From Escherichia coli (lineage in GTDB: Bacteria; Pseudomonadota; Gammaproteobacteria; Enterobacterales; Enterobacteriaceae), in assembly GCF_003334335.1 (NCBI RefSeq), contig NZ_QOWQ01000034.1: a DNA stretch of 50,400 bases. The stretch is one strand, 5' to 3'. The position numbers and the translations under genes are program-made. The notes beneath the pieces are model-generated. The model was not told the DNA's origin. It searched no databases and saw nothing but the letters and a program-made list of their open reading frames with translations. Within the stretch, counting starts at the first letter, position 1. Every line of letters begins with the position of its first letter. Below, piece after piece: positions 6,289-23,052 of the stretch.

Positions 6289-6493
6289 ACATACAATAAT
6301 TAATTGCACTGCCCCGCCAGCGATAATAGCGGGGCTTCGTTTTTCAGGGGTAACAAAACCCGATACTTCTTCTATTTGCCAGCAACAATGCCTCTCTTCT
6401 GTAGCGTTCTTCGGATCTACATCATCCTGAAGTAGCGCGATATACTCACTGACTATCTGCATCAGAATATAAAAAGCAATGTTTTTAACCTAT

Positions 6494-6524
6494 AAAAATG
6501 GCGCTGTATTTGCGCCATTTTTAT
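6494..6524. terminator. Bidirectional rho-independent terminator between convergent ykgJ and yagU
   Basis: Hairpin AAAATGGCGC-TGTATTT-GCGCCATTTT flanked by T/A runs on both strands. Confidence 0.55.
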
Positions 6525-6535
6525 CATTCAATGCA

Positions 6536-12885: not shown

Positions 12886-12961
12886 ATGGTGCCGATAATA
12901 GGAGTCGAACCTACGACCTTCGCATTACGAATGCGCTGCTCTACCAACTGAGCTATATCGG
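12886..12961 (-). tRNA. thrW: tRNA-Thr (anticodon CGU)
   Basis: 76-nt cloverleaf read on minus strand: acceptor GCCGATA/TATCGGC, TTCGACT T-loop, CGT anticodon, CCA end. Confidence 0.9.
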
Positions 12962-13076
12962 CCCTGAAAGGACATGTTCACGAACGTGAATCACGGTGGA
13001 CAAGGTTAAAACTAACCGGGCGATGCGTCAATGGCCTTGTGAATCAAATGGCTACTTTTGCATCACCCGGTTTTAT

Positions 13077-19340: not shown

Positions 19341-20798
19341 GTGTCTGAACTGTCTCAATTATCTCCACAGCCGCTGTGGGATATTTTTGCCAAAATCTGT
19401 TCTATTCCTCACCCGTCCTATCATGAAGAGCAACTCGCTGAATACATTGTTGGTTGGGCAAAAGAGAAAGGTTTCCATGTCGAACGCGATCAGGTAGGTA
19501 ATATCCTGATTCGTAAACCTGCTACCGCAGGTATGGAAAATCGTAAACCGGTCGTCTTACAGGCCCACCTCGATATGGTGCCGCAGAAAAATAACGACAC
19601 CGTGCATGACTTCACGAAAGATCCTATCCAGCCTTATATTGATGGCGAATGGGTTAAAGCGCGCGGCACCACGCTGGGTGCGGATAACGGCATTGGTATG
19701 GCCTCTGCGCTGGCGGTTCTGGCTGACGAAAACGTGGTTCACGGCCCGCTGGAAGTGCTGCTGACCATGACCGAAGAAGCCGGTATGGACGGTGCGTTCG
19801 GCTTACAGGGCAACTGGTTGCAGGCTGATATTCTGATTAACACCGACTCCGAAGAAGAAGGTGAAATCTACATGGGTTGTGCGGGGGGTATCGACTTCAC
19901 CTCCAACCTGCATTTAGATCGTGAAGCGGTTCCAGCTGGTTTTGAAACCTTCAAGTTAACCTTAAAAGGTCTGAAAGGCGGTCACTCCGGCGGGGAAATC
20001 CACGTTGGGCTGGGTAATGCCAACAAACTGCTGGTGCGCTTCCTGGCGGGTCATGCGGAAGAACTGGATCTGCGCCTTATCGATTTCAACGGCGGCACAC
20101 TGCGTAACGCCATCCCGCGTGAAGCCTTTGCGACCATTGCTGTCGCAGCTGATAAAGTCGACGTCCTGAAATCTCTGGTGAATACCTATCAGGAGATCCT
20201 GAAAAACGAGCTGGCAGAAAAAGAGAAAAATCTGGCCTTGTTGCTGGACTCTGTAGCGAACGATAAAGCTGCCCTGATTGCGAAATCTCGCGATACCTTT
20301 ATTCGTCTGCTGAACGCCACCCCGAACGGTGTGATTCGTAACTCCGATGTAGCCAAAGGTGTGGTTGAAACCTCCCTGAACGTCGGTGTGGTGACCATGA
20401 CTGACAATAACGTAGAAATTCACTGCCTGATCCGTTCACTGATCGACAGCGGTAAAGACTACGTGGTGAGCATGCTGGATTCGCTGGGTAAACTGGCTGG
20501 CGCGAAAACCGAAGCGAAAGGCGCATATCCTGGCTGGCAGCCGGACGCTAATTCTCCGGTGATGCATCTGGTACGTGAAACCTATCAGCGCCTGTTCAAC
20601 AAGACGCCGAACATCCAGATTATCCACGCGGGCCTGGAATGTGGTCTGTTCAAAAAACCGTATCCGGAAATGGACATGGTTTCTATCGGGCCAACTATCA
20701 CCGGTCCACACTCTCCGGATGAGCAAGTTCACATCGAAAGCGTAGGTCATTACTGGACACTGCTGACTGAACTGCTGAAAGAAATTCCGGCGAAGTAA
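19341..20798 (+). CDS. pepD: Cytosol nonspecific dipeptidase PepD (M20 family)
   Basis: 485 aa; GTG start. Confidence 0.9.
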   Translation: MSELSQLSPQPLWDIFAKICSIPHPSYHEEQLAEYIVGWAKEKGFHVERDQVGNILIRKPATAGMENRKPVVLQAHLDMVPQKNNDTVHDFTKDPIQPYIDGEWVKARGTTLGADNGIGMASALAVLADENVVHGPLEVLLTMTEEAGMDGAFGLQGNWLQADILINTDSEEEGEIYMGCAGGIDFTSNLHLDREAVPAGFETFKLTLKGLKGGHSGGEIHVGLGNANKLLVRFLAGHAEELDLRLIDFNGGTLRNAIPREAFATIAVAADKVDVLKSLVNTYQEILKNELAEKEKNLALLLDSVANDKAALIAKSRDTFIRLLNATPNGVIRNSDVAKGVVETSLNVGVVTMTDNNVEIHCLIRSLIDSGKDYVVSMLDSLGKLAGAKTEAKGAYPGWQPDANSPVMHLVRETYQRLFNKTPNIQIIHAGLECGLFKKPYPEMDMVSIGPTITGPHSPDEQVHIESVGHYWTLLTELLKEIPAK

Positions 20799-20811
20799 TT
20801 ATTTGATTTGC

Positions 20812-20853
20812 TGCCGGATGGCGTTTAATCGCCTTCCGGCAGTTTCATCCTTC
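20812..20853. terminator. Hairpin terminator after pepD (convergent with prfH)
   Basis: CTGCCGGATGGCG-TTTAAT-CGCCTTCCGGCAG followed by TTT. Confidence 0.55.
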
Positions 20854-20854
20854 A

Positions 20855-21412
20855 TTATCCTTCGATAAAAGCCATCCCTGTAAATGTCCGTCGCGGGTTG
20901 CCACGTTCAATCTGGTGATGGAACATTCGCCGCTGCGATTTCAGCGCCGCGCTATTTTCCTGTTGCTGTTGCTCCAGCTTCCAGGCAATCAGCAATCGTG
21001 CCAGCCGCTTGTTAGCATGCTGACTACGCTCTGACTGAACCTTCACGCTAATACCGGATGCCAAATGCGTGGCGCGTACCGCCGAGTCGGTTTTATTGAC
21101 ATGTTGACCGCCCGGCCCCGACGAACGCAGCGTCTCATAACGGATTGCATCCGATTGTTCCTGCTCATCAGCGGTAAAACGCCCAATGCCCAGAAACCAG
21201 TTTTTGCGCCCATGATGAGGCCGATACGGACTCGGACAAATCCACTGAATAGTGCCACACCAGCTTTCGCTTAATGCCCATGCGTTATCGCCATCGAGAG
21301 AAACCAGCGCCGAACGCAGTGTGTCAGAGTAGCGGCCCGTTTCTGTTTCCAGCACCGTTACCGCGACGTCTTGCCGGGTAAAAACGACCAACAGAGAAGA
21401 ACGCTGCGCCAA
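20855..21412 (-). pseudogene. prfH: Peptide chain release factor homolog PrfH, apparently N-terminally truncated
   Basis: 185-aa ORF with GGQ motif ([11 protein letters not shown]); its 5' region overlaps an rtcB-like fragment. Confidence 0.65.
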
Positions 21413-21590
21413 TCGGGTAGCCGCGTCCGGGGTGTAAATCTGGCATCCCCACTACGCGCTGCATGTTGGGTAAATTTGCCGTGGTGTGTAATTGTTGGAT
21501 CGCTAAACTCTCGATCCACAGGTCATCAGATGCGATGGTAAATACCGCATCGGATAAGGGACGAATATATTTGCCCATGTACCATTCCAT
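21324..21590 (-). pseudogene. ykfJ: RtcB-like RNA ligase N-terminal fragment (ykfJ-type remnant)
   Basis: 88-aa ORF resembling an RtcB N-terminus, far shorter than a full RtcB; overlaps prfH. Confidence 0.5.
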
Positions 21591-21895
21591 TTATACTCGT
21601 CATACTTCAAGTTGCATGTACTGCGACTGCGTTCGTTCACCCCAGTCACTTACTTATGTAAGCTCCTGGCGATTCACTCGCTTGTCGCCTTCCTGCAACT
21701 CGAATTATTTAGAGTATATAAATATAAAAATCAGGAAATGGCAGACGAATCCAGGGCAAGAAAAAAAGAATTAATCCTGGAAAGGTCTGCAAAGAGTCAT
21801 TGATAAAGGATTTGTCATGATTTACCTCCTTGCAGTTTGTGGAATCAGAAAACGCGCACATACCAGGCGGGCGTTATTTTCATTGCAAGCTGGAT

Positions 21896-22348
21896 TTAAT
21901 GTTGCGGTTTATATCGCATATAAAAATTAGTAAACCACGCTCCCCGGCATTCAACGCGCTGCTGCTTAACTGTCTGAAAACCATAACGTTCAAAAAAGGG
22001 TTTTGCGGTTATGCTTGCGTCCACCGTAAGTTCGGATTCAGACTTAATCAAAGGTTTTAACAAAGCGCTGGCAACCCCACGGCGGGTGTATTCAGGGTCA
22101 ACAAATAACATATCGATATAATGTTCAATGCGGGAAATAAAACCAACCGGTTGTGCATTAATGATCGCAACCCACACTTGTGATTTCGCGAGTTTCTCCT
22201 TCCAGCGAGATTCGTCAATCTGCGCCCAGGCGGAAATTTGTTGTGGTGAATAATGCTGACTGGCGGTCATCGTAACCGCTCTAATGAAAATAGCGCATAG
22301 TTGCTGAAAATCGCCAGGCTGATAGTTTCTTATTTGTATGTTATTCAT
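21896..22348 (-). CDS. yafP: GNAT-family acetyltransferase YafP
   Basis: 150 aa; last gene of dinB-yafN-yafO-yafP. Confidence 0.85.
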   Translation of the reverse strand: MNNIQIRNYQPGDFQQLCAIFIRAVTMTASQHYSPQQISAWAQIDESRWKEKLAKSQVWVAIINAQPVGFISRIEHYIDMLFVDPEYTRRGVASALLKPLIKSESELTVDASITAKPFFERYGFQTVKQQRVECRGAWFTNFYMRYKPQH

Positions 22349-22357
22349 AATATAAAT

Positions 22358-22756
22358 TCAAAAACGCATGCGAAACGCTTCTGCCATTTTCCCAATTTTA
22401 TGCATTTGGTTGTTATCTCGAGCCAGTTTATGAGGTTCAGGTTTCAGAATGGCAATGAGCAACCATGCTTGCTCATCAAACGCCCCCTGACAATATACCA
22501 AATGCGCTTCGTCATTCGTTCTGCTGAATTGGCGCAACTGTGGCGGAAATGGATTATTCTCATTTGCCAGATGAATATGAGCAACTCGCTCAAATTTGAT
22601 TAATGGCCAGGTAAAGGAGTCGTCGTAGAGTGCATCGCGACCAAATATATCTGGCAAAACACCGTCACGCTTATAGGAAATAAAATCCGCCGTTAACGCA
22701 TCAAGTTCCTCTGCTGTAAGTTGCAGGCGAATAAGTTTTGTTTTGAATACCCGCAT
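22358..22756 (-). CDS. yafO: Type II toxin YafO
   Basis: 132 aa, directly downstream of yafN. Confidence 0.85.
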   Translation of the reverse strand: MRVFKTKLIRLQLTAEELDALTADFISYKRDGVLPDIFGRDALYDDSFTWPLIKFERVAHIHLANENNPFPPQLRQFSRTNDEAHLVYCQGAFDEQAWLLIAILKPEPHKLARDNNQMHKIGKMAEAFRMRF

Positions 22757-22758
22757 CC

Positions 22759-23052
22759 TTATTCCTTAAAGTCATTGAAATCATCATCCGTCATATCATT
22801 AAGATATTGTTCAGCGCGGCGTGTAATTTCCTCTAATCTTGCAGCACTTGGACGGAAGCGCGCCTTTATGGGCTTTTTCTCCTCTTGTTCAGCAAGCATG
22901 TCCATTAACGCTTCGAATGCGCTGGCACTTAAGAGATATCCTGCGGGGCGATTATTAGAAAGAACCGCAACCGGTTGATCAATAAAGTATTTAGCTGGGT
23001 TTTTACGTAACTCAGTGATATTGACCGATTTTTCAGCGAGAATTCGATGCAT
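22759..23052 (-). CDS. yafN: Type II antitoxin YafN
   Basis: 97 aa, acidic C-terminus; 3-nt gap to yafO. Confidence 0.85.
   Translation of the reverse strand: MHRILAEKSVNITELRKNPAKYFIDQPVAVLSNNRPAGYLLSASAFEALMDMLAEQEEKKPIKARFRPSAARLEEITRRAEQYLNDMTDDDFNDFKE

Follow-up and report, generated by a model that had tools for sequence, protein, structure and literature searches.

The prfH locus of Escherichia coli K-12 was reportedly described by Pel et al. in 1992. Later descriptions were given by Baranov et al. in 2006 (PMC1586002) and by Tian et al. in 2022 (PMC9304027), and the deletion of roughly 1000 nt which is the subject of the present analysis has been published for K12, W3110 and O157:H7 (PMC1586002; PMC9304027). 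Baranov et al. argued that a product of the truncated gene would be short of a central beta-strand in domain 2, so that this domain could not fold (PMC1586002). Both K-12 genes were regarded as 'presumably inactive' by Tian et al. (PMC9304027). Maviza et al. (2022) reported that deletion of the intact genes in ATCC25922 sensitises the strain to colicin E3, while deletion of the remnants in BW25113 leaves its sensitivity unchanged; the truncated operon of BW25113 gives no protection against this toxin (PMC9223846).

In the intact system, the ribosomal subunits separate, and RtcB2 then religates the 16S rRNA of the released 30S subunit (PMC9304027; PMC13166195). PrfH has the GGQ peptidyl-tRNA hydrolase domain in common with RF1, RF2 and ArfB. 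In contrast to RF1 and RF2, it is devoid of release factor domain 1 and of stop-codon reading, and reads the cleaved decoding centre instead (PMC1586002, PMC9304027). The rRNA-recognition domain of PrfH consists of residues 2–98 and 180–204, Q122 of the protein has been mutated (Q122E/N), and H294N is the inactive RtcB2 mutant of Tian et al. (PMC9304027).

Locus and gene context

The DNA analysed here, referred to as the window, is a stretch of 50,400 nucleotides from E. coli (contig NZ_QOWQ01000034.1). Two overlapping ORFs are present on its minus strand between positions 20855 and 21590, one of 185 aa (20855–21412) and one of 88 aa (21324–21590). The 1301 nt around them match those of E. coli K-12 derivatives (EPI300 and 'K-12'), and of some wild isolates, with 100% identity. 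On this identical DNA the RefSeq annotation gives the minus-strand order dinB-yafN-yafO-yafP-rtcB'-prfH', followed by the convergent pepD, and the two fragments are labelled 'RtcB family protein, missing C-terminus' and 'prfH, missing N-terminus'. In the K-12 annotation, rtcB2' is called ykfJ (b0235) and prfH' is prfH (b0236), both being pseudogenes. A literature search for 'ykfJ' returned nothing relevant, and the 2026 papers on PrfH do not mention the K-12 allele. The pair in the window is an already known and experimentally characterised pseudogene pair, and its finding is correct but ordinary. The region is almost certainly what remains of an rtcB2-prfH ribosome-repair operon that no longer works, and neither fragment would be functional.

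A strong palindromic hairpin, predicted by RNA folding on both strands, is located at 20810–20843 between the convergent ends of pepD and prfH'. Its outer stem of 9 bp is perfect, and its inner stem is 4 bp long. The folding energy is -27.1 kcal/mol for the plus strand (z=-5.6) and -25.1 kcal/mol for the minus strand (z=-6.2). The hairpin was not called by the simple terminator scan, but is probably a bidirectional terminator or a REP-like element. The terminator scan of positions 20750–21950 gave two weak terminator-like matches inside prfH', which are at chance level, and the search for structured RNAs at the Rfam gathering threshold returned nothing within 20800–22000. Elsewhere in the window, gathering-level Rfam matches are present on the minus strand for the IS009 sRNA (6331–6530), a tRNA (12890–12962), the ES036 (CssrF) sRNA (30552–30594) and naRNA4 (CssrE; 36391–36468), all unrelated to the remnant.

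On the other side of the remnant, an ERIC/IRU-type repeat of about 129 nt occupies 21595–21723 (core 21634–21677) between yafP and rtcB', and ends 17 nt upstream of the ATG of rtcB'. Both halves of its core correspond, with one mismatch each, to the ERIC2 and ERIC1R primer sequences. The repeat is absent from the intact-locus strain L003 and shorter in the intact-locus strain L002. The ERIC core also accounts for the extra places per genome in BLAST searches with the remnant region. Further upstream, the window has the yafN-yafO toxin-antitoxin pair (22358–23052). Of the five intact-operon strains sampled, four (L002, L003, L009 and L010) do not have this pair, and dinB overlaps yafP directly in them; the fifth (L011) contains yafN together with a yafO that has an internal stop. 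Downstream of prfH, L010 and L011 (2906–3627) carry an extra 'metal-dependent hydrolase' and a hypothetical gene before pepD, and the last three codons of their PrfH read VAV instead of IEG.

A 1027-bp deletion at a 9-bp repeat

The initial annotation viewed the locus as an intact two-gene module that had lost most of rtcB, and proposed alignment to intact rtcB-prfH loci. Five such loci (L002, L003, L009, L010 and L011) were compared with the window base by base. In the intact loci, a 379-aa rtcB and a 204-aa prfH lie between yafP and pepD and are joined by an ATGA stop/start overlap. Alignment revealed that the window differs from these operons by a single deletion of 1027 bp, equivalent to positions 2058–3084 of L002, which agrees with the proposed loss. 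The intact loci contain a 9-bp imperfect direct repeat (TACCCG[G/A]CA) whose two copies, TACCCGGCA in rtcB and TACCCGACA in prfH, are 1027 bp apart. The deletion junction of the window (21372–21380, minus strand) is the single surviving copy, TACCCGGCA.

RtcB2 residues 70–379, the ATGA stop/start overlap, the prfH start codon and PrfH residues 1–30 have been lost in the deletion. It joined codon 69 of rtcB2 to codon 31 or so of prfH in different reading frames, with the junction repeat supplying residues T31-R32-Q33 of PrfH. Since 1027 cannot be divided evenly by three, the reading frame of prfH' is shifted by +1 with respect to that of rtcB'. Both ORFs read out of frame across the junction, so that the apparent overlap between them is created by the junction and does not represent overlapping genes. 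The initial annotation had reported a release-factor-like ORF overlapping an 88-codon RtcB-like fragment; the ORFs and the RtcB N-terminus are real, but the overlap is an out-of-frame read-through and the fragment starts at 21578.

The rtcB2' fragment (21372–21578, minus strand), assigned from NCBIfam, tblastn and RefSeq, comprises codons 1–69 of the 379-aa RtcB2 RNA ligase. Intact RtcB2 matches the window over residues 1–69 at 21578–21372 with 98.6% identity (tblastn, E=5e-41). The 88-aa ORF matches NF007153 (E=7.7e-31, 107.4 bits; ORF residues 5–73) at profile positions 1–69 of 379 only, and TIGR03073 (E=6.2e-29, 101.1 bits) at positions 1–59 only, with both scores below the whole-protein cut-offs of 407 and 271.8 bits, respectively. 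The true start of rtcB is the ATG at 21578 and not 21590. Beyond codon 69 its frame continues for 15 out-of-frame codons across the junction up to a TGA at 21324–21326. In intact RtcB2, the motifs start at residues 73 (NDIGCG, metal binding), 133, 168 and 239 (His motifs) and 294; the DxxC metal-binding motif (from residue 74) and the guanylylated nucleophile His294 (HGAGR) belong to the deleted part. Every catalytic motif lies beyond residue 69 and is absent from the whole window. Full-length rtcB homology in another frame, which would have refuted the initial annotation, is rejected: full-length RtcB2, compared by tblastn with the entire window in any frame, recovers residues 1–69 alone and otherwise nothing better than E=1.6.

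The prfH' fragment (20855–21371, minus strand) comprises codons from about 34 to 204 and the TAA stop of PrfH, as assigned from TIGR03072, the match to 7sa4 and RefSeq. The 185-aa ORF matches the NCBIfam profile TIGR03072 ('peptide chain release factor H') with E=5.8e-83 and 277.3 bits, well above the curated cut-off of 166.65 bits, and the match extends over ORF residues 13–182 and profile positions 31–200 of 200. From residue 26/31 onward (residues 26–204), 174 of 179 residues are identical to the active, structurally solved EcPrfH (7sa4). The E-values of the PrfH and RtcB matches are far beyond chance. Weaker NCBIfam matches to prfB, prfA and ArfB over the GGQ region remain far below the cut-offs of RF1, RF2 and ArfB. 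The codons of the GGQ motif of peptidyl-tRNA hydrolysis are intact at 21104–21112 (minus strand), with Q122 in the full-length numbering, which confirms the release-factor-like ORF with an intact GGQ that was first reported.

A full-length PrfH has about 200–204 aa, begins at a start codon of its own and contains the whole rRNA-recognition domain, whereas prfH' is deprived of residues 1–30 and of the ATG. The missing residues 2–30 amount to about a third of the N-terminal part of the rRNA-recognition domain. The first 11–12 or so codons of the 185-aa ORF are an out-of-frame reading across the junction, and a TTG at 21412, which is not preceded by an evident Shine-Dalgarno sequence, is the sole start codon that the frame offers upstream. 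Coupling of prfH' to rtcB2' has also disappeared, the ATGA overlap present in intact L002 being located inside the deleted 1027 bp. The initial judgement that prfH is probably non-functional is borne out by the experiments with the K-12 derivative BW25113 (PMC9223846), although the 5' truncation of prfH itself had been missed.

Population distribution and further decay

Of 5426 complete E. coli genomes, 2692 carry the contiguous junction of the K-12 type, and 2675 contain the deleted 1027-bp segment at 80% coverage or more. The deletion is thus a common natural allele and no laboratory artefact. Three junction haplotypes can be distinguished, namely TAC-CCGGCA (K-12 type, 1216 genomes), TAC-CCGACA (O157:H7/BL21 type, 1127 genomes) and TAT-CCGGCA (337 genomes). 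The G/A variant of the junction coincides with the one position at which the two copies of the 9-bp repeat differ. K-12 and L007, which are of the G type, and L004 and L008, which are of the A type, have an identical 201-nt haplotype on the left flank (four of the six sampled carriers), and this haplotype occurs in none of the five intact alleles.

The remnant has been altered further in several carriers. In L005 and L006, which have the TAT junction, a second deletion of 169 bp at a GCAT microhomology (equivalent to about 21021–21185 of the window) has removed the GGQ. The deletion, seen in these two genomes, is linked to the TAT haplotype of 337 genomes; among the matches listed, 12 of 12 TAT-type genomes have a 'hypothetical protein' in place of prfH, as in L005 and L006. 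The strain 1604D011 (L007) carries an in-frame second deletion of 189 bp between 19-nt imperfect direct repeats (21119–21137 and 21308–21326). These repeats inside prfH', spaced by 189 nt, are the exact substrate of the deletion in L007 (1010–1025). This strain also shows a dense cluster of substitutions in the 30–50 nt just downstream of the primary junction. In a wastewater isolate (NZ_CM129861.1, 4076559–4078636), an IS1A is inserted into the rtcB'-prfH' remnant.

The codons retained in prfH (20858–21371) were compared among three carriers (the window, L004 and L008) and gave pairwise dN/dS values of 0.03–0.16, no higher than those among the intact alleles. By themselves, such low values would point to constraint. 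The prfH' frame is open for 173 codons in most carriers. A site table reveals haplotype blocks common to carriers and intact alleles, as seen for K-12, which is identical to L002 over codons 136–157. Changes private to carriers comprise 3 nonsynonymous and 6 synonymous substitutions in this very small sample; two of the nonsynonymous ones, P79L and S116P, occur at positions that are invariant in the five sampled intact alleles. Recombination with intact alleles together with ancestral polymorphism produces mosaic sharing, and the low dN/dS can therefore be explained without selection. In this small sample, it probably results from haplotype exchange rather than from selection.

Origin and status of the deletion allele

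Fragmentation of the operon could be viewed as a peculiarity of laboratory K-12, whose mutagenesis history was brought up by a reviewer in PMC1586002, or as an error of sequencing or assembly. This explanation is refuted by the spread of the junction over 2692 complete genomes, O157:H7 and BL21 included, with carriers coming from humans, cattle, pigs, poultry, water and wastewater. According to another explanation, there were two or more independent deletions at the 9-bp repeat, with the rtcB-side G kept in the K-12 type and the prfH-side A kept in the O157/BL21 type. Both of the bases that the imperfect repeat can leave are indeed frequent at the junction (1216 and 1127 genomes), and for the right flank of K-12, dS is lower in comparison with intact L002 (0.04) than with the O157 remnant (0.16). 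If this were true, the 9-bp repeat would be a deletion hot spot. However, the 201-nt left-flank haplotype is common to K-12 and L007 (G type) and L004 and L008 (A type) and absent from the five intact alleles, although the sample is very small. Because both junction variants share this haplotype, a single deletion that later underwent a mutation (a G/A transition) or a conversion is more likely, and we consider recurrent deletion unlikely.

A different kind of explanation holds that PrfH' (residues from about 31 to 204) is still made and remains partly active, perhaps as a minimal peptidyl-tRNA hydrolase, and that selection maintains the remnant; translation would start from the TTG at 21412 or follow a +1 frameshift from the rtcB' frame. 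The open frame in most carriers, the near identity of the kept part to active EcPrfH and the low pairwise dN/dS among carriers are in its favour. So is the +1 position of prfH' relative to rtcB', which ends at CUC-UGA-C, a sequence superficially like the CUU-UGA-C site of prfB. CUC-U would, however, offer no slippery match for the Leu tRNA, the TTG has neither an ATG in its place nor a visible Shine-Dalgarno sequence before it, and no site was found in a scan of 20750–21950 for sigma-70-like promoters. The low dN/dS is accounted for by haplotype sharing with intact alleles. Moreover, the GGQ is deleted in at least 337 of the 2692 carriers, and others have different second deletions or IS1. Partial loss of the rRNA-recognition domain (PMC9304027), the lack of a central beta-strand argued by Baranov et al. 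(PMC1586002) and the unchanged colicin E3 phenotype of the BW25113 knockouts (PMC9223846) point in the same direction, and persistence of a working PrfH', by either route, is hardly credible. It is likewise highly improbable that the deletion allele as such is non-neutral, be it that PrfH' or the 84-aa RtcB' peptide is kept for a new role or that the roughly 50:50 frequency reflects a balanced polymorphism. Such a balance would arise if the repair module were costly in the absence of rRNA-cleaving toxins, and in either form the 9-bp repeat would serve as a switch that turns the module off recurrently.

A dead remnant left by one deletion is the interpretation that we prefer. Replication slippage or illegitimate recombination at the 9-bp repeat may have generated the deletion, most likely on a single occasion, in a strain from which much of the species descends. 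Since then the remnant would have drifted neutrally, held similar to the intact alleles by recombination, and in some lineages second deletions would have eroded it further.

Comparison with known systems

The remnant explains the sensitivity of K-12, BL21 and O157:H7 to ribotoxins of the colicin E3 type and the suitability of K-12 as a clean background for studies of the intact module. Half of the sequenced E. coli are without the RtcB2-PrfH defence. As a discovery the locus is of little importance, publications on the pseudogene pair going back to 2006 and a test of its loss of function to 2022. The population figures, the junction haplotypes and the independent second deletions are a modest addition, and illustrate the step-wise erosion of a pseudogene at short direct repeats.

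In comparison to the intact module of E. coli ATCC25922 and CFT073 (PDB 7sa4), the locus occupies the same position between yafP and pepD and the residues kept are nearly identical, whereas the catalytic residues of RtcB2, residues 1–30 of PrfH, the prfH start codon and the translational coupling are gone. In comparison to the prfH/ykfJ pseudogenes of K-12, it is the very same locus with the same gene order and the same deletion of roughly 1 kb, which extends from the 3' region of the gene upstream into the 5' region of prfH. To the published description of K-12, our analysis makes modest additions, namely the exact breakpoints and their repeat, the three junction haplotypes, the genome counts and the secondary deletions.
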